A stretch of DNA of 18,407 nt, from UHGV virus genome UHGV-0077132; one strand, written 5' to 3'. This stretch comes from a virus. A program made the position numbers and the translations under genes. Shown piece after piece: positions 587-7,492 of this stretch. The notes beneath the pieces are model-generated. The model saw only the letters and a list, made by a program, of their open reading frames with translations. It did no database searches and was not told where the DNA came from. The first letter of the stretch is position 1. Each line of letters opens with the position of its first letter.

Positions 587-683
587 AATTTCTTACCGTT
601 ATGGTTGACAATGAGAACTGTTTTCATTTAAAAAACCGATATACGAAAGCATCTTTTCTTTACATTCTCCATTGGGATTACCT

Positions 684-721
684 CCGCCAGCTTCCATTCC
701 TGCCGCTGGCGGCCTTTTTTT
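684..721 (+). terminator. Hairpin plus T7 run, plus-strand orientation, abutting the nanS-p stop
   Basis: ccgccagc (684-691) pairs with gctggcgg (705-712) around a 13-nt loop, followed by ttttttt (715-721); large loop lowers confidence. Confidence 0.3.
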
Positions 722-722
722 A

Positions 723-2684
723 TCATGCCGCAGCATCCGCGTTGTTCACTTCCACCTTCACACTGTCAATCAGCAGCGTATATGTCGCCGCCTTTGATAT
801 GCCTGTCAGTTGCAGTTTGTCCGCCGCCCCTGATGCCGGAGATTTCACCAGTGTGAACGGCGTCCCCCGTTTCTCATCCAGTACCGGCGTCACCTGAATG
901 CTGTTGTTTCCGGCAAACTCAAAAGCCAGTGTGTGCCATCCGTTATCAAAGACCCCGAACGTATCCAGCTTCGCATTCGGCTTCTTGTGGTGCATCGCGT
1001 TCAGGTTCGTCGCATCCGTCTGCAGGAAGAAGGACATCAGCATGTCGTTGCCTTCCTCTGCCAGCGTCACTCCCTCCGGCAGGGACGACAACTGCCAGTA
1101 AATGCCCAGGGCAAACTGATTCGGCACCAGTGAACCCGGCAACTTAAACCGTACGCTCACACGTCCTCCTTTCTTCAGCAACTCTGCCCCCTGCCCGGCT
1201 GCATCATGCTCCAGAAACCAGATGTGGTTTTCCGGTTTATTCAGTTGCAGGGCCTTACCTCCCGTAGCCCCCGCATCACTGACCACCGCTTCAGCAATGT
1301 TTTTGTTAACATTGTCTCCGCTCGCCGGTTTGTGATAATAGCGCCAGCCCTGTGATGCCAGGTCTTCGCCGGACGCCAGCAGACTCATCAGGGTTCGGTT
1401 ACTGACCGGGGCTTCCGGCTCTCTCTCCGTACCTTCACCGGAAGGTCCGGTGGGCTTCACCGTATCAGGCTGTTTTCCGGTAATGAATTCAGCGTTTCTC
1501 CCGGCATGCACAAGAATCGCCGTTGCCAGACGGTCGGAAATAATCCCACGACGTGCCCATGATCCAAAATGCGTTTTACGGTCAGCCGTCGTCCAGGTTT
1601 TGGCGTCCGTTCGACCACCGGCTCCGTAATACCCAATATCCGCAACATCCGGATCTTCTGACGGCTCGTTGGTACCCACATTTCGCCCGTTTTCATCCGT
1701 CATAAACGGCACAAAGAAGATTTTTTTTGCGGATTTCGTCTTGTATGCACCATACACCGCATCGTATTGCGAAGAATAAGTCTGCTTCCAGTAGTAGGTC
1801 GTGTCGCCACAAATCCAGGGAACTGATGACGGAGAGCCCCCGAGACACTGACCTCCGAATTCCGACAGGTCAGAACGATATTTTTCCACCATGGAATCAA
1901 ACAGCCCCGGCTGAGTGGCGTATGCACCCTGTTTCAAATCAAACTCGCCCTGCATCCAGACCACTGCAAGCAGAATATTTTTAGGGTTGGCCTTCAGTGC
2001 GGCCTGAGTACGGGTAAGCAGGTCCTTGTACAGTGGCTTATCTACACCCCAGCGTGCCGAGGTCTCGCTTGCGCCGGTGGATTCGCTGAAGGTACCTTCA
2101 TCGCCCGCCAAAAATGCAGAACCACCACGGCAGCACGGAACCAGAAGAATACCGGCATTCGCCGGAATAAACGGCAACAATTTCTTCGCGATATGTAATC
2201 CCTGCCCCACGCATCCATACTGAGCTGCGCTGGCTTTCGGGTGTGAAAACTTACTCAAATCCTGAACATCATGCAGGCAGTGGTCCGCAGGAATAATGTC
2301 ATTGTAGTTACAGGACGCACCACCCGGCGTGACAGTGCTGCGACGCGCCAGCTGTTTAATACGCGGGTCCGGACGGTCATATGTCTCCGGCAGCGGAAGC
2401 CCTTCACCATACGCCATACCGTTTGACTGCCCGGCCAGGGCAACAACAAAGTAATACTCCGGGTTGCTGGTGGTGCTGATAACTGCGCCTTCTCCATCCG
2501 ACGGCTTCACCACCACAGGTGTGGTGACATCACCTTCCGCCGCAATGGCCTGCATCAGGGTATAAGGCGTGATGGCCACCGGACTGCCAAATGGCTGCCA
2601 CCCCTCCTTCAGTTTTTGTGTCAGTCGTTTCGCAAGGTCTGACGGCGATGCCGCCCTGACCACGTCATAGTGTTTAAATGCCAT
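723..2684 (-). CDS. nanS-p: NanS-p-like prophage sialate O-acetylesterase (N-terminal DUF1737-like region plus SASA/SGNH esterase domain), 653 aa
   Basis: ATG at 2684 with SD GGGAGG; GQSNG motif (VVALAGQSNGMAYGEG) typical of the SASA esterase family; N-terminus MAFKHYDVV...EGWQP resembles the DUF1737 start; position matches the gene downstream of stxB in Stx phages. Confidence 0.8.
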   Translation of the reverse strand: MAFKHYDVVRAASPSDLAKRLTQKLKEGWQPFGSPVAITPYTLMQAIAAEGDVTTPVVVKPSDGEGAVISTTSNPEYYFVVALAGQSNGMAYGEGLPLPETYDRPDPRIKQLARRSTVTPGGASCNYNDIIPADHCLHDVQDLSKFSHPKASAAQYGCVGQGLHIAKKLLPFIPANAGILLVPCCRGGSAFLAGDEGTFSESTGASETSARWGVDKPLYKDLLTRTQAALKANPKNILLAVVWMQGEFDLKQGAYATQPGLFDSMVEKYRSDLSEFGGQCLGGSPSSVPWICGDTTYYWKQTYSSQYDAVYGAYKTKSAKKIFFVPFMTDENGRNVGTNEPSEDPDVADIGYYGAGGRTDAKTWTTADRKTHFGSWARRGIISDRLATAILVHAGRNAEFITGKQPDTVKPTGPSGEGTEREPEAPVSNRTLMSLLASGEDLASQGWRYYHKPASGDNVNKNIAEAVVSDAGATGGKALQLNKPENHIWFLEHDAAGQGAELLKKGGRVSVRFKLPGSLVPNQFALGIYWQLSSLPEGVTLAEEGNDMLMSFFLQTDATNLNAMHHKKPNAKLDTFGVFDNGWHTLAFEFAGNNSIQVTPVLDEKRGTPFTLVKSPASGAADKLQLTGISKAATYTLLIDSVKVEVNNADAAA

Positions 2685-2877
2685 GAATCCTCCCGGCCGG
2701 GATAATATTGTGAGTAAAATAAGGAGCGGGCTGAAGTCCGGAAGTTACAGGACAATGGCAGAAGAGAGACGACAGCCCGCAATTCGAAAAAGACCGCGCA
2801 GTTGCGCAGAGTGATTACTATGGGGTATTATTCGTCAGCTGAAATATTACTTCACGTTTTATTGTTTATTCCTTGCC

Positions 2878-2906
2878 GCCCGCGTCTCCCAGCGCGGGCT
2901 TTTTTT
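2878..2906 (+). terminator. Rho-independent terminator, plus-strand orientation
   Basis: Stem gcccgcg (2878-2884) / cgcgggc (2893-2899), 8-nt loop, then seven Ts (2900-2906). Confidence 0.45.
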
Positions 2907-2909
2907 GTC

Positions 2910-2937
2910 CATAAGAAAGCCCCTCCGGAGAGGGGCT
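2910..2937 (-). terminator. Possible minus-strand terminator hairpin about 350 nt downstream of the lipoprotein gene
   Basis: Perfect 8-bp stem agcccctc / gaggggct with cgga loop (2918-2937); minus strand continues TTCTTAT. Confidence 0.25.
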
Positions 2938-3282
2938 GGAGAGTGGCGCTATGTGCCATTGCATGGTGCCGGGTGCCTCCCGGTGAGTTCAGCCCGGTGA
3001 CACTGAACCCGCGTCATTCTCGTTTTGATAATCAGAGATTATACCATCACCAGTCGCCCCTCCGCTCAGGGGGATTCACCATGCCGTTCTCTTTTAACAA
3101 ATTCGCCGCTAACAGGACAACATTCCGCTTTCTGAGTTGTGAGGAATTTAACACTTCACACCTGTGTGCATTTTCTACAGGCTGATCCCAGCACCACAAT
3201 ACATCGCAGGCAACAGAAGCCAAATGCCCCACCACAGAAAAAACATGCAATTATGATTATTGTTTACTGCAAAGATGTAGAA

Positions 3283-3711
3283 TCACGGTTTAAAATCCAG
3301 CACTCCATTGTGAAATACTTTATATACTTCCGGAGACGGCGGAACTGGTATATCAGCATGCTTCACCGCATTCATCGCTTCACGACATAAATCGGGGTCT
3401 CCACCTTCTCTTTTAACCTGTAGCAGAAGACCATTCGGGGCCATATACATTCTCAGTGAACACTCTTTTCCTGAATACTTACTCGCATCCTTTAACTGTT
3501 CTTCTATGGCTTTCCTGACCTGAATGGCATACTGCCTGATTTCTTCACTGGCATCAGGGGTACGTTCCGATGAGCTCAAATTTTGCGACTTTATTAATTT
3601 ATCTGAGTGATACAGAGAAGCATCATAATTATTTGTCGATACATCTTTTGTGCAGCCAGTTGTCAGACTGGCTAATATCAAAACAAGAACTGGTACAGCA
3701 CGGCAATACAT
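3283..3711 (-). CDS. Secreted lipoprotein with a TolA C-terminal domain (domain III)-like fold, 142 aa; candidate periplasmic TolA-III decoy
   Basis: ATG at 3711 with SD GGAG; signal peptide MYCRAVPVLVLILASLTTGC (lipobox-like, Cys21); Ser/Asp-rich linker; C-terminal ~85 aa align with E. coli TolA domain III as recalled (YSGKECSLRMYMAPNGLLLQVKREGGDPDLC ... IPVPPSPEVYKVFHNGVLDFKP versus TolA YAGKTCTLRIKLAPDGMLLDIKPEGGDPALC ... IPKPPSQAVYEVFKNAPLDFKP); both disulfide cysteines conserved. Confidence 0.8.
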   Translation of the reverse strand: MYCRAVPVLVLILASLTTGCTKDVSTNNYDASLYHSDKLIKSQNLSSSERTPDASEEIRQYAIQVRKAIEEQLKDASKYSGKECSLRMYMAPNGLLLQVKREGGDPDLCREAMNAVKHADIPVPPSPEVYKVFHNGVLDFKP

Positions 3712-3841
3712 TTATCCATCTCCATATTAACAAGAACAATTATCTATAAAATATAGTAAATATGCGGGATCCGGGAGGACTTGTAACTATCATCTCCGGA
3801 TCAGCATGTAGTTTTTATTTTTCCGGATGATATATGCCGCA

Positions 3842-3870
3842 ATAATACCTCTGCATACAGATGCCTGCAA
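3842..3870 (-). promoter_or_regulatory. Candidate sigma70 promoter for the TolA-III-like lipoprotein gene
   Basis: Minus strand: -35 TTGCAG (3870-3865), 17-nt spacer, -10 TATTAT (3847-3842); about 130 nt upstream of the ATG. Confidence 0.3.
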
Positions 3871-3913
3871 ATATCTGCGAAGCATCCGGCGAGAATAAAC
3901 AAGGAAGTCTGAG

Positions 3914-3933
3914 GCTATCTTATATGATAGCCT
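3914..3933. promoter_or_regulatory. Perfect 20-bp palindrome GGCTATC-TTATAT-GATAGCC, candidate dimeric regulator site upstream of the lipoprotein promoter
   Basis: Exact inverted repeat of 7 bp with an AT-rich 6-bp spacer; no adjacent T-run, so not a terminator. Confidence 0.3.
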
Positions 3934-3989
3934 GTTGCTCAAAAGACAATGATTCACTCATCAGAACCAACAACGCATAATGCAGATAA

Positions 3990-4066
3990 TGGACCGCCAT
4001 CGAGGACTCGAACCCCGCGCAGCCAGCTTCGAAGGCTGGCGCTCTATCCCGATGAGCTAATGGCGG
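3990..4066 (-). tRNA. argO: tRNA-Arg (anticodon UCG), phage-borne, argO-like
   Basis: Minus strand folds as a cloverleaf: acceptor CCGCCAT/ATGGCGG, D-arm GCTC..GAGC, anticodon stem CCAGC/GCTGG with loop CTTCGAA, T-loop TTCGAGT, encoded 3' CCA; boundaries +/-1 nt. Confidence 0.7.
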
Positions 4067-4075
4067 TATGTGATA

Positions 4076-4151
4076 TGGTGGCCCTTGCTGGATTTGAACC
4101 AGCGACCTGGCGATTATGAGTCGCTCGCTCTCACCACTGAGCTAAAGGGCC
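4076..4151 (-). tRNA. ileZ: tRNA-Ile2 (anticodon CAU, lysidine type), ileX/ileZ-like
   Basis: Minus strand GGCCCTTTAGCTCAGTGGTGAGAGCGAGCGACTCATAATCGCCAGGTCGCTGGTTCAAATCCAGCAAGGGCCACCA; near-identical architecture to E. coli ileX as recalled; anticodon loop CTCATAA; 3' CCA encoded. Confidence 0.8.
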
Positions 4152-4191
4152 GGGCGTAGGATAATAACGGTACGTAACTAATTCTGCAATA

Positions 4192-4530
4192 TCATCCGTT
4201 CTGACTGACTAAATCCTGAACTTCCCGAACCGTCTGCTCAAAACGTTCAGTCTCCAGCTCAACGCCTGTAGCACGACGGCCCAGTGCCAGTGCAGCTTTA
4301 ACTGTTGAACCTGACCCCATAAAAAAATCTGCAACCAGGTCACCCGGACGACTGCTTGCGCTGATTATCTGCTGCAGCATTTCTGCCGGTTTTTCGCACG
4401 GATGTTTCCCGGGATAGAACTGCACCGGTTTATGCGTCCAGACATCGGTATACGGCACCTGCGCCGTCACGCCAAAATACCGCCGCAGTCGGCATTCACA
4501 ACCACCAGCGCATTTAACGTTCAGGCACAA
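4192..4530 (-). pseudogene. 5'-truncated N6/N4 DNA methyltransferase remnant (C-terminal part only)
   Basis: Contains the AdoMet-binding motif DLVADFFMGSGSTV and the upstream WT..P..F.PGKHPCEKP block of beta-class MTases, but no DPPY catalytic motif and no ATG start (the ORF opens with TTG right after a terminator hairpin). Confidence 0.6.
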
Positions 4531-4532
4531 AA

Positions 4533-4556
4533 AAACCCGCTCGACGGCGGGTTTAA
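4533..4556 (-). terminator. Rho-independent terminator, minus-strand orientation, at the upstream break of the methylase remnant
   Basis: Stem aaacccgc / gcgggttt (8 bp) with loop tcgacg; on the minus strand it is followed by TTTT (plus A-run 4529-4532). Confidence 0.4.
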
Positions 4557-4885
4557 GCTGTGTGACGAAGTAACCACTCTTAACAGCATAACCAATTTTT
4601 TACGTACGTAAACTACTAAATGATATTTGTGAGAATGCCACCGAGTGTTCAAAACACCACCACAAATACATAAGAAAACTTCAACAAATAACCAATGAAT
4701 AATTTCCGATGTTATTTTTAGGTTGTTTAAATTAAGCCAAAAAATTATAGGGCGCTTATAAATAAGTGTCATTAATATAAATTAGCTAATAGATTTATTT
4801 TTGTTCAAACAAGAGCCATGAATAGGATTAGATAGAAAAGGTTCAGATAAAAATAGAGATCTACGTCACAAATTAAATGAGAAAC

Positions 4886-4965
4886 TAAAACTTACATCTT
4901 GAAATAATCACATTGATTAGATGAATATTTATCGCGCAGTGACATCATTTTTTTATAATAGTTCA
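4886..4965 (+). promoter_or_regulatory. Porin promoter region: OmpR-box-like repeats and a -10 TATAAT with a poor -35
   Basis: cTTACATcTTGAAAtaatCACAT (4891-4913) resembles ompC/ompF OmpR boxes; TATAAT at 4954-4959 about 20 nt before the ATG; strongly AT-rich upstream region. Confidence 0.35.
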
Positions 4966-4980
4966 AAAAAAGGGCGTACA

Positions 4981-6063
4981 ATGAAAAAATTAACAGTGGC
5001 AATTTCTGCTGTAGCTGCATCAGTACTGATGGCGATGTCTGCTCAGGCAGCTGAAATTTATAATAAAGACAGTAACAAGCTGGATCTATACGGGAAAGTT
5101 AATGCCAAGCACTACTTCTCCTCTAATGATGCAGATGATGGTGATACTACTTATGCTCGTCTTGGCTTCAAAGGTGAAACCCAAATCAACGATCAACTGA
5201 CTGGTTTCGGTCAGTGGGAATATGACTTCAAAGGCAACCGTGCTGAATCTCAAGGTTCTTCCAAAGACAAAACCCGTCTTGCATTTGCAGGCCTGAAATT
5301 TGGTGATTACGGCTCAATCGATTACGGTCGTAACTACGGTGTAGCATACGACATCGGTGCGTGGACTGACGTTCTGCCAGAATTCGGTGGTGATACCTGG
5401 ACCCAGACAGATGTGTTCATGACTGGCCGCACTACTGGTGTTGCAACTTATCGTAACAACGACTTCTTTGGTCTGGTCGATGGCCTGAACTTTGCTGCTC
5501 AGTATCAGGGTAAAAATGACCGCACTGACGTAACTGAAGCCAATGGTGATGGTTTCGGTTTCTCCACTACTTATGAGTATGAAGGATTCGGCGTGGGTGC
5601 AACCTATGCTAAATCAGATCGCACTGACGGTCAGGTCGCCTATGGTAAGAGCAAATTCAATGCCTCCGGCAAAAATGCGGAAGTATGGGCTGCAGGCCTG
5701 AAATATGATGCGAACAATATCTATCTGGCTACCACATATTCTGAAACTCAGAATATGACCGTTTTTGGTAATAACCATATTGCAAACAAAGCACAAAACT
5801 TTGAAGCAGTAGCACAATATCAGTTTGACTTCGGTCTGCGCCCATCTGTTGCTTACCTTCAGTCAAAAGGTAAAGACCTTGGTGTTCATGGTGACCGAGA
5901 CTTAGTCAAGTATGTCGATGTCGGTGCTACTTACTACTTTAATAAAAACATGTCCACTTTTGTTGATTACAAAATCAACTTAATTGACGATAGTAAGTTT
6001 ACCAAAACAGCTGGTATTGATACCGACGACATCGTCGCTGTAGGTCTGGTTTATCAGTTCTAA
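4981..6063 (+). CDS. nmpC: Outer-membrane general porin of the OmpC/PhoE/NmpC/Lc family (phage-borne porin moron), 360 aa
   Basis: ATG at 4981 (the ORF-track start at 4921 lies upstream of the -10); signal peptide [23 protein letters not shown]; mature N-terminus [16 protein letters not shown] and C-terminus ...VAVGLVYQF typical of enterobacterial porins; same Q-adjacent, opposite-orientation position as nmpC in DLP12 and lc in PA-2. Confidence 0.9.
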
Positions 6064-6074
6064 TCTGACTTACG

Positions 6075-6114
6075 AAAAAGATATGTTGCGGGAGGCTTTG
6101 CCTCCCCAACATAT
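6075..6114 (-). terminator. Strong rho-independent terminator on the minus strand, candidate tR' downstream of Q
   Basis: 15-bp stem (atatgttgcgggaggc / gcctccccaacatat, one bulge), 3-nt loop, then C plus TTTTT on the minus strand (plus A-run 6075-6079). Confidence 0.5.
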
Positions 6115-6118
6115 AAGT

Positions 6119-6251
6119 GGAGCCCTCAAGCCACTTCCTTTAGAAGCACTACCTTGCTTCTTACTATATAAACCTTCTGTTATATATTACCCTTTATTTT
6201 GGGGGCGTTTCCACGCCCCATTTTTAATAACTTTTAGTAAACAATTGCATA
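6119..6251 (-). promoter_or_regulatory. Expected location of the late promoter PR' and Q-utilisation site
   Basis: Inferred from position between Q and the terminator at 6075-6114; candidate -35 TTGATA on the minus strand, but no clean -10 identified. Confidence 0.3.
6202..6225 (+). terminator. Rho-independent terminator for the porin gene
   Basis: Stem ggggcg (6202-6207) / cgcccc (6214-6219), loop tttcca, then ATTTTT (6220-6225). Confidence 0.5.
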
Positions 6252-6635
6252 TCAATTAGAATTATTAGCAACGATATCCATATCTAACCGGATATCTAAT
6301 GCCATTAACATCCCTTCAATTATGCCCTCAGCCTTCTGTAACCTTTTCCCGATATAACCATCCGAGCAGCAATGCTTACTTGCCAGTGACATGAATGTCA
6401 TACCACATACATAATAATCTACTAATAAATCGTGTAAATCGCTGTTGTTCTTTTTCAGACGGGCCATGCACCCGCAAATGATCATCGCGTCATCGTCACA
6501 ACATTGCGGGCGAGATTTTACTTTTGAAGGAATTAATCCCTTAAAACCGGCAGCAATGGACGACCAGGTCACATCCTCATGATTATTTGCCGCCCATGCG
6601 CCCCAGCGTTCAAGAACCATCTGAATATCACGCAT
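6252..6635 (-). CDS. Q: Late antiterminator Q (Stx-phage/phage 82-type), 127 aa
   Basis: First ATG at 6635 gives [38 protein letters not shown]...[16 protein letters not shown], matching the recalled Q of Stx2 phages; start overlaps the upstream gene stop (TAATG). Confidence 0.85.
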
Positions 6636-7492
6636 TATTCGCACTCACCAACCAGATTGAGAATGACCGCTGCACCGTCGTCTTCCATGCATTCACCCTT
6701 ACCACTTGCCAGAAACCAGCGGCACACCTCCACGGCTTCAGCGCGTGTCACCGGTTTGATGGTTGCCAGCAATTTTTCAAGGTAGCGCTCGCGGTCATAT
6801 ACCGATTCGTGATGCTCAGAGTAACCAAACTCATCGCCCTGTTCTTTAGTTGCAGTGTGGCGAACACTGTAGAGCCAGTCCCAGTAAACGAACTCGCGAA
6901 CAACATCAGACAGCGTATAAGGCTCAGGCAGCACATCGCGATATCCATCAACAAATGCCCGACGCTGTTCATCAATTTCGTTCATGCGGCTGCCGCCAAT
7001 GCTTCCGGCTTTTTTCTCTGCCGCAGTCCAGCCCCAGAGATGATCGTTGATAAATTTCTGGGAAGACCTGATGACCCGCTCTGCTTCCACATCTTCGAGC
7101 GCTGCTTCATAGCTACCAAACGTAGCCCTGACTGATGCCGCTTTTTTGATGTTCTCCCGGGCGTTCCTGATAACCTGCGCAGGGTTATCCATGCCGATGA
7201 TGCCGAACGCAACTTGGAAAGGTTCGTAACCATTCGCCAGCAGATAACGCGAATAGCGTTCCTGAGCCTCTTTTGGGGAAATTTTAATTTTCACCAGCGC
7301 AGCCTCAGCAGCATCCAGATGTGCGGGTTCGTTCAGACGGATAACCTCCAGCACCCAAAGATAAGCATCAGTCTGCTTATGCCCGGTGATTCTCCGTTGC
7401 TCTGGCAGGGGCTTGATGTTTGCGAGGGCGGAGCTGTACGCTGCCGTCGGGATGGTGAATAGTGCTTTATGTTCGTTATTATCAGTACGCAT
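6635..7492 (-). CDS. Conserved phage protein of unknown function (nin-region position), 285 aa
   Basis: Long ORF translationally coupled at both ends (TAATG overlaps with the primase stop and the Q start); no motif recognised. Confidence 0.65.

Follow-up and report, generated by a model that had tools for sequence, protein, structure and literature searches.

A predicted lipoprotein with TolA domain III in the stx cargo slot of a lambdoid prophage, a possible decoy for Tol-dependent bacteriocins and filamentous phages

The UHGV virus genome UHGV-0077132, analyzed here as a single stretch of 18,407 nucleotides (the window), is a lambdoid prophage with a small minus-strand gene in the cargo slot where Stx2 phages carry stx2AB. 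An original prediction, made from the sequence without database searches, had described the product of this gene as a lipoprotein that carries a free domain III of TolA (TolA III). Group A colicins, klebicins and filamentous phages all enter by way of TolA III, where force is also exerted on TolB-Pal. Our analysis confirms that the open reading frame (ORF) 3283..3711, which starts with ATG and has exactly the predicted extent of 142 amino acids (aa), encodes a signal peptide, a tether and a complete TolA III. With regard to function, we assign a probability of about 0.5 to the reading that the selected effect of the protein is protection against Tol-dependent bacteriocins and filamentous phages, with the protein acting as a decoy or dominant negative. 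Pfam, PHROG and RefSeq already contain the domain family and the gene as such; a functional characterization was not found in the literature.

The similarity of the C-terminal part to TolA III is far above chance. Residues 54-142 align with residues 333-421 of E. coli TolA over the full span of the domain, gap-free and with 55% identity; residue n of TolA corresponds to residue n-279 of the query. A profile search, as proposed with the prediction, yielded a significant match of Pfam TolA_C (PF06519) to residues 52-140 (E=3.8e-23, 81.9 bits versus a cut-off of 25), and phmmer against the solved TolA III structures 1S62, 3QDP, 2X9A and 1TOL returned E=8e-27. Both disulfide cysteines are in register, C84/C109 with C363/C388 of TolA, and the terminal VFHNGVLDFKP is the counterpart of VFKNAPLDFKP in TolA. 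For structural comparison we used an AlphaFold model built on an alignment of 40 sequences, while a single-sequence model with a predicted local distance difference test score (pLDDT) of 55.6 was discarded. The model has a pLDDT >90 over residues 54-142 and <50 for most of residues 22-53. Superposition by Foldseek on the TolA III of 2X9A chain B gave a root-mean-square deviation of 0.6 A over 88 columns and a target template modeling (TM) score of 0.96; further matches were other TolA III structures, followed by TonB C-terminal domains. Thus, the protein has in common with E. coli TolA III (residues ~325-421) the fold, the disulfide, the YxGK motif and the terminal LDFKP strand. The settings differ: E. 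coli TolA has an inner-membrane anchor and is encoded in ybgC-tolQRA-tolB-pal-cpoB, whereas the protein of the window has a lipid anchor and is encoded in a prophage late operon.

The signal peptide with a lipobox-like LTTGC that had been noticed in the sequence is equally apparent. The N-terminus, MYCRAVPVLVLILASLTTG directly followed by Cys20, comprises one basic residue (Arg4), a hydrophobic core of 12 residues (5-16) and the motif L-T-T-G-C, which fits the PROSITE lipoprotein rule. Close relatives from E. coli reveal three unrelated signal peptides, MYCRAVPVLVLILASLTTGC in the window as well as MYCRGLPVLVLIFACLTAGC and MGFRSASILTLIISGIIIGC, and the lipobox cysteine is kept in at least 90% of 36 aligned short homologues despite otherwise unrelated signal peptides. 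When 1.84 billion cluster representatives were searched without a profile, 330 matches were obtained, of which the best 150 were examined. Among these 150 representatives, 97 are 200 aa or shorter, and 72 of the short ones appear complete. A strict pattern finds a lipobox in at least 50 of the 72, inspection by eye adds about five, and most of the others carry ordinary signal peptides. Asp at position +2 occurs in none of 50 lipobox-bearing homologues, and the protein of the window has Thr there. According to the Lol rule, a +2 residue other than Asp leads to sorting to the outer membrane; judged from sequence, a lipid anchor in the inner leaflet of the outer membrane is therefore the most likely location. 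The Ser/Asp-rich linker of the original prediction corresponds to residues 21-53, a polar, Ser-rich segment with 7 Ser and 4 Asp among 33 residues that is predicted to be disordered (pLDDT <50). Between alleles A and C this tether diverges faster than the domain, with 62-65% versus 85-88% nucleotide identity.

In RefSeq, the identical gene of E. coli CE10 and 14 other complete genomes is annotated as WP_000271630.1, "tolA: cell envelope integrity protein TolA". Taken at face value, this PGAP name would make the protein a spare or paralogous TolA, or else a dead fragment of host tolA, and the frameshift near residue 124 in some copies could be read along the same line. We consider both very improbable. 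The full-length TolA models of NCBIfam align by their last 90-97 positions only (297-386 of 387 and 266-362 of 362). PRK09510 remains far under its cut-off (104.6 versus 213), and TIGR02794 passes on the C-terminal match alone (74.2 versus 59.45); the low cut-off of the latter probably explains the name. The transmembrane domain I of TolA is missing, and its place is taken by a cleavable lipoprotein signal of 19 residues. Likewise, the Ala/Lys/Glu-rich helical domain II is missing, with just the 33-residue Ser-rich segment between Cys20 and domain III, such that the protein comprises 142 aa compared to 421 aa of E. coli TolA. Since the transmembrane anchor and the helical domain II are absent, the protein cannot be energized by TolQ-TolR; coupling is impossible and it can only bind. 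There are no tol-pal neighbors, and the genuine tolQRA-tolB-pal operon is located elsewhere (locus L015; L numbers denote the loci compared). The gene has its own start codon, a Shine-Dalgarno sequence and an acquired lipoprotein signal, and a lipobox is present in some 50-55 of the 72 short, apparently complete proteins from the best 150 clusters. The RefSeq name hence over-annotates and is misleading, as it ascribes to the protein a role beyond its reach; "TolA C-terminal domain lipoprotein" would be the better designation. A further RefSeq name, "TolA C-terminal domain-containing protein", is no more than a database bin.

Conservation of the gene argues against decay as well. The ratio of nonsynonymous to synonymous substitution rates (dN/dS) of the domain between prophage alleles is 0.10-0.51, which denotes purifying selection. 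Towards host tolA, nucleotide identity is 57% and dS is about 2.5-2.8, i.e., synonymous sites are saturated. A recent capture or fragment of host tolA is ruled out by these values; the low identity and the saturated synonymous sites point to an old, maintained gene. By megablast, approximately 890 of 5,426 complete E. coli genomes (~16%) carry the gene in up to three copies. A single allele is present at >=99% identity in 782 genomes and the allele of the window in 15. The alleles meet in a mosaic joint: in a comparison of the window with alleles A and C (L002 and L004), similarity ends about 70 nucleotides (nt) into the gene (3643-3711), just past the lipobox and at the border of signal peptide and mature protein, and the breakpoint between A and C likewise follows the lipobox directly. 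The mature part is 83-88% identical, while the signal peptide and all DNA upstream of the joint are non-homologous. In the E. coli copies P0022-P0031 and P0036, the frameshift near residue 124 replaces the last helix and beta3 by a hydrophobic tail that ends in APLRRKYIKYFKMGCWILNPDIYCFVINGFGLGLF; these copies are probably decaying.

The decoy reading is built on the ligand-binding surface of TolA III. The N-terminus of TolB, the N1 domain of the filamentous phage protein g3p (g3p-N1) and colicin N all bind to beta3 of TolA III by beta-strand addition (PMC4339652; PMC7391070), and D418P or K420P alone abolishes binding of TolB, g3p-N1 and ColN and causes a full leaky tol phenotype (PMC4339652). 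In the protein of the window, beta3 (L138 D139 F140 K141 P142) is identical to L417-D418-F419-K420-P421 of TolA. Across 36 stand-alone homologues it is among the best-conserved surface segments, with L in 32, D in 28, F in 34 and K or R in 31 of the 36.

We propose that the protein, anchored by its lipid in the inner leaflet of the outer membrane, would present the folded TolA III on a flexible tether of ~33 residues. As a decoy or dominant negative, this non-energized copy would compete with host TolA III for ligands. The TolB N-terminus and g3p-N1 of Ff/IKe/If1-type phages would be intercepted, as would group A colicins and klebicins through their translocation domains. Caught just under the outer membrane, these ligands would never reach energized TolA, and cells should tolerate Tol-dependent bacteriocins and exclude filamentous phages. 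At high dose, e.g., by Q-dependent late transcription on induction, Tol-Pal would be disturbed and the outer membrane would become leaky and vesiculate. A modest dose should block the parasites first, because TolA III binds parasite ligands with an affinity of ~1 uM versus ~40 uM for TolB (PMC4339652). A precedent for interference at this interface is given by periplasmic g3p-N1, which sequesters TolA and thereby makes cells resistant to colicin A and lowers phage uptake by 4 logs (PMC10424213). The decoy idea of the original prediction has gained from the conserved beta3, from homologues linked to bacteriocin genes and from TonB_C lipoproteins (see below), while binding and phenotypes, just like outer-membrane sorting and the timing of expression, are what we infer from these features.

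Several observations weigh against the decoy reading. Sequestration of TolB ought to come at a cost for the envelope. As beta3 is also a structural strand, its conservation need not mean ligand binding. Colicin A uses the opposite edge of TolA III, L375-P380, with cation-pi contacts to K368, K379 and K396 (PMC3365938). This edge (beta2) is only partly kept in the protein of the window, which has LLQVKR versus LLDIKP of TolA; K379 and K396 are retained, whereas K368 is replaced by Y and P380 by R. The homologue on pO157-type plasmids differs in its C-terminal strand (SGFDMRG), and hence not all members of the family can act alike. Among 50,697 deposited phage genomes, a single one (mEp460_ev081) contains the gene, and the BFVD collection of viral structures has no match to the protein. 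Finally, there is no convincing private promoter, and the gene may thus be silent in the lysogen, the state in which a decoy would be of greatest use.

The last point touches a claim of the original prediction that did not hold. The sole candidate for a promoter of the gene itself is a sigma-70-like site that agrees with the consensus in 9 of 12 positions (Table 1) and is not significant: the region contains four promoter-like sites versus 5.1 +/- 2.3 in shuffled sequence. Consensus scans upstream of allele C and of the Salmonella homologue detected no promoter-like site in front of the gene, and a comparative promoter alignment is not possible, as alleles A and C and the Salmonella homologue are preceded by unrelated DNA. 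With respect to the hallmarks of a moron, a terminator-bearing small RNA (sRNA) is located downstream; on the upstream side stands the 9/12 site, which has no equivalent in the other alleles. Downstream of the porin insertion, a promoter-like sequence is followed after about 200 nt by a strong terminator-like hairpin at 4554-4533, AAACCCGCCGTCGAGCGGGTTT plus a T-run. From its layout, this unit is a candidate for a pR'/tR'-like late promoter and terminator leader. A search for pR' directly after Q (6040-6260) gave no convincing site. The safest statement is that the TolA III gene is transcribed with the late operon under Q. If expression is late only, modulation of Tol-Pal and the envelope is favored as much as protection of the lysogen.

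Late expression is central to the main alternative, in which the protein is an antagonist of Tol-Pal that titrates TolB, weakens the outer membrane and speeds lysis and release, with colicin and phage protection as an incidental effect. It would be produced only when the late genes are expressed upon induction or, in the case of Col plasmids, together with the SOS-induced bacteriocin and lysis genes. The genomic arrangement is in good agreement with such a role. The 62 viral contigs with relatives that we obtained from IMG/VR, with an alignment of eight sequences, reveal a Q gene of one of five types upstream on the same strand in 48 of the 49 contigs with enough upstream sequence. Holin or endolysin genes follow on the same strand in 20 of the 23 contigs that extend far enough downstream. 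The commonest allele is located 1.05 kb past Q and just 0.8 kb ahead of the holin gene. The slot is that of stx2AB, whose product leaves the cell by lysis, the homologues on Col plasmids adjoin operons of bacteriocin and lysis proteins, the TolB-binding strand is conserved, and the TolB-breaking exchanges D418P and K420P in TolA cause leakiness, as described above.

On the other hand, the lambdoid prophage already has its own release functions: past nanS-p, the window continues with DUF1378, DUF826 and holin genes, and holin, endolysin and spanin genes are present in the CE10 prophage. The weak TolA-TolB affinity would require large amounts of protein for effective titration. Homologues also occur where nothing needs to be released: IncR plasmids carry them, pO157-type IncF plasmids have them in the leading region, and Klebsiella chromosomes at a fixed site; these settings without phage lysis support the decoy reading. 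In addition, the gene on a Klebsiella Col plasmid is divergent from the bacteriocin operon, and the TonB_C domains paired with TolA III fit an import block and have no obvious role in outer-membrane integrity; TonB is not known to contribute to the integrity of the envelope. Taken together, we regard a primary function in release as somewhat unlikely.

The distribution of homologues modifies the picture of a free TolA III on a prophage. The domain is indeed present there, yet it is not a one-off, but one branch of a family that extends to plasmids and Klebsiella chromosomes. We propose to define the stand-alone TolA III family by a length of 120-160 aa, a signal peptide or lipobox, a short linker and a single C-terminal TolA_C domain; the protein of the window has each of these features. 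The family includes PHROG 5772 ("unknown function"), of which the protein is a full-length member (residues 6-142, E=5e-57). No defence-system model of PADLOC matches it, and in the full-text literature we found no functional study of a phage- or plasmid-encoded free TolA III, in line with the original prediction, whose author knew of no characterized example. A paper on the evolution of TolA and TonB leaves stand-alone forms unmentioned (PMC12204202).

A tblastn search against 72,556 plasmids retrieved homologues on 1,334 records. On two ColRNAI plasmids of K. pneumoniae (10,060 and 11,970 bp), the genes for a 123-aa lipoprotein TolA III and for a secreted TonB C-terminal domain of 121 aa (Pfam TonB_C E=9e-11) overlap, and the pair (L012 3526-4259; L013 2118-2851) adjoins genes for a colicin-like tRNase bacteriocin, an immunity protein and a lysis protein. 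This pair may constitute a dual import-blocking module. Such small ColRNAI plasmids are very common in clinical K. pneumoniae. On an Enterobacter Col plasmid, a 140-aa lipoprotein TolA III adjoins a pore-forming colicin-like operon. IncR and IncF plasmids of Klebsiella carry either a 144-aa lipoprotein form or a form with a signal peptidase I type signal adjoining psiA, which it abuts on an IncFIA/IncR plasmid (L017 4923-5282). In IncR plasmids, a Thioredoxin_2 gene precedes the TolA III gene by 47 nt in the same orientation (L009 6406-6954 (+)); this thioredoxin-fold gene may be relevant to disulfide formation in the domain. In the leading region of pO157-type plasmids (92-95 kb, toxB), a 143-aa lipoprotein form follows psiB-psiA-hok, e.g., on pTA108 (pO157-type IncF, 92.7 kb; L016 5947-6378), where the gene stands before toxB and its product matches TolA_C with a Pfam E=5e-14.

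The family is not confined to mobile elements. Chromosomes of Klebsiella and Raoultella contain a 142-aa lipoprotein form at a syntenic, non-prophage site. In K. michiganensis and K. quasipneumoniae (L080-L084, 7001-7429) its signal ends in LLLSAC followed by SG, and the gene is placed after a LacI/ABC/PTE/peptidase M20 cluster. One cluster of this chromosomal form alone comprises 879 member sequences. The syntenic chromosomal copy suggests a housekeeping-type role and is one reason to consider that the protein might be an envelope adaptor with another partner, such as CpoB, Pal, a porin, a peptidoglycan enzyme or a phage or plasmid protein, and might alter envelope physiology (outer-membrane constriction at the division site, lipid homeostasis, conjugation or DNA entry). 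The surface of helix alpha2, which differs from that of host TolA (Q389R, A390E, A393N, L397H, K399D), the homologues next to psiA/psiB in plasmid leading regions, and the distance of just 1.2 kb from the gene of the window to a phage porin gene would all suit an adaptor. No partner gene, however, is consistently linked across the prophage, plasmid and chromosomal contexts, and the best-conserved surface element is the strand of the known ligands. To our knowledge, CpoB is not established as a partner of domain III. TolA III does not bind Pal in vitro (PMC7391070). We therefore consider a function as adaptor improbable.

Group B colicins as well as phages like T1 and phi80 enter by way of TonB. 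Besides TolA III, the CE10 prophage matching the window encodes a 108-aa lipoprotein with a TonB C-terminal domain (LVMGC followed by TQH; Pfam TonB_C E=1e-14). Its gene (L001 9687-10013 (-)) is located just past the lysis cassette, about 3.2 kb beyond position 1 of the window. Of 5,426 E. coli genomes, 415 carry the same TonB_C lipoprotein gene, which is also present in phage 21, Stx1a phages and CP-933N and may provide a parallel free transducer tip directed against Ton-dependent colicins and phages. A strict pairing of TolA III and TonB_C per prophage was rejected, as prophages with allele C have no TonB_C gene in the regions read. As a tentative generalization, with the odds against it, we suggest that mobile elements (lambdoid prophages, Col, IncF and IncR plasmids) use exported TolA III and TonB_C tips as tethered decoys, i.e., as an import-blocking immunity. 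If true, carriers would tolerate entire classes of bacteriocins and phages together, those that depend on Tol as well as those that depend on Ton, and the gene of the window would represent the prophage TolA arm of this immunity, present in about one sixth of E. coli genomes.

The proposed mechanism has counterparts among known systems. Artificial TolA III in the periplasm, a construct of Levengood-Freyermuth, Click and Webster (1993), reportedly renders cells tolerant to group A colicins and leaky, and periplasmic TonB C-terminal fragments are said to inhibit TonB-dependent uptake. These laboratory fragments likewise place a free transducer tip in the periplasm; they are, however, artificial, soluble and over-produced, whereas the protein of the window is natural, predicted to be lipid-tethered, under selection and borne by a mobile element. 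With g3p (pIII) of Ff phages in the infected cell, it would have in common the TolA III/g3p-N1 interface and the predicted colicin tolerance and superinfection block (PMC10424213). Both would be mirror images: g3p masks the host receptor, while a receptor mimic would mask the incoming ligand. Cor (phi80/N15/mEp), Llp (T5) and TraT (F) are likewise small outer-membrane lipoproteins of mobile elements that stop the entry of competitors. According to the literature, however, they bind and plug outer-membrane receptors (FhuA, OmpA) and are not copies of a host domain; a relation in sequence or fold is not apparent, as the Foldseek matches were TolA and TonB domains only. The FimU mimics of Pseudomonas prophages are also reported to be a prophage copy of an envelope-machine component that hinders phage entry. 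They concern the type IV pilus and are built into the machine, whereas the protein of the window would be a free decoy (Cell Rep 2026, PMC12952977). Receptor-tip decoys of mobile elements would hence be a new variant of envelope exclusion or immunity, distinct from Cor, Llp and TraT and from toxin-specific immunity proteins.

If the decoy reading is true, it would constitute a new route to broad bacteriocin and phage tolerance and could help to explain the colicin resistance of many wild E. coli without receptor loss. This would be relevant to bacteriocin and phage therapeutics against E. coli and Klebsiella, given that pO157-type plasmids and the small Col plasmids of clinical K. pneumoniae carry homologues, and the protein would serve as a natural dominant-negative probe for Tol-Pal research. 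Should it loosen the outer membrane at a late stage instead, it would be a new accessory to phage or bacteriocin release, in the Shiga toxin slot of related phages.

The neighborhood of the gene is summarized in Table 1. On the minus strand, the order is Q, tRNAs, TolA III gene, sRNA, nanS-p and holin. The placement between late tRNAs (3990-4151) and the nanS-p esterase gene is as originally described, and the assignment to the stx cargo slot is borne out by megablast of positions 600-4600 against deposited phages: Stx2 phages match both flanks and carry stx2A and stx2B in between. A homologue from Salmonella with 42% identity occupies the same slot.

Table 1. Coordinates of the TolA III lipoprotein gene, its parts and surrounding features in the window.
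Feature	Position	Strand	Evidence and remarks
TolA III lipoprotein coding sequence	3283..3711	-	142 aa, ATG start, stop codon 3283-3285; ORF list, Pfam, PDB, RefSeq
Lipoprotein signal peptide, residues 1-19, and Cys20	3652..3711	-	Cys20 codon 3652-3654; lipobox L-T-T-G-C, +2 = Thr
Disordered polar tether, residues 21-53	3553..3651	-	Low pLDDT and composition
TolA domain III, residues 54-142	3286..3552	-	Disulfide C84-C109; terminal beta3 L138-D-F-K-P142
Shine-Dalgarno GGAG	3720..3723	-	8 nt 5' of ATG; from sequence
Weak sigma-70-like site TTTGCA-18-TATTAT, 9/12	3842..3871	-	131 nt 5' of ATG; sole private-promoter candidate, not significant
Promoter-like ATGACA-17-TATAAT (11/12) at 4772-4744, then terminator-like hairpin at 4554-4533	4533..4772	-	Candidate pR'/tR'-like leader, from layout
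Late antiterminator Q, QuuD type	6252..6644	-	Pfam Phage_antitermQ E=7e-54; RefSeq quuD
OmpC-family porin gene	4921..6063	+	Opposite to late transcription; Pfam Porin_1 E=3e-151
DNA methylase gene remnant (3' third)	4192..4530	-	
tRNA-Met(CAT)	4076-4151	-	ARAGORN, Rfam; tRNA-Ile in RefSeq at the identical CE10 locus
tRNA-Arg(TCG)	3990-4066	-	ARAGORN, Rfam, RefSeq of the CE10 locus
STnc100/PasD-family prophage sRNA and terminator	2907..3113	-	Rfam RF02076, 162 bits versus gathering score 47
NanS-p-type sialate O-acetylesterase gene	723..2684	-	DUF1737, SASA and DUF6645 (Pfam); RefSeq; yjhS/nanS-p of Stx2 phages

Presumably, the tRNA-Met(CAT) corresponds to the lysidine-modified ileZ type that occurs in Stx phages. 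Related prophages, among them L011 (strain G1/2 prophage, 97% identical), have a full methylase gene of 1,059 bp and lack the porin gene. Group A colicins cross the outer membrane via porins, and hence two adjacent cargo genes of the window concern the same import pathway.

The full-length STnc100 sRNA lies 170 nt 3' of the stop codon of the TolA III gene and includes a terminator-like hairpin at 2937-2918. STnc100/PasD is a known family of prophage Hfq-binding sRNAs (bioRxiv 10.64898/2026.05.13.724894). In other loci, STnc100 copies of ~200 nt flank the TolA III gene on both sides on the late strand, namely in L002 (5444-5634), in L004 (7704-7877, 8599-8803 and 8854-9061) and in L010 (4281-4478, 4570-4749, 5445-5642 and 6925-7152). 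These repeats may mark where the cargo slot recombines, or they may be involved in driving or ending its transcription. In L011, an AsxR-family match (RF02703, 4623-4675 (+)), exactly at the gathering score, adjoins an STnc100 copy (4680-4889 (-)) directly 3' of the TolA III gene; in Stx2 phages, AsxR adjoins stx2.

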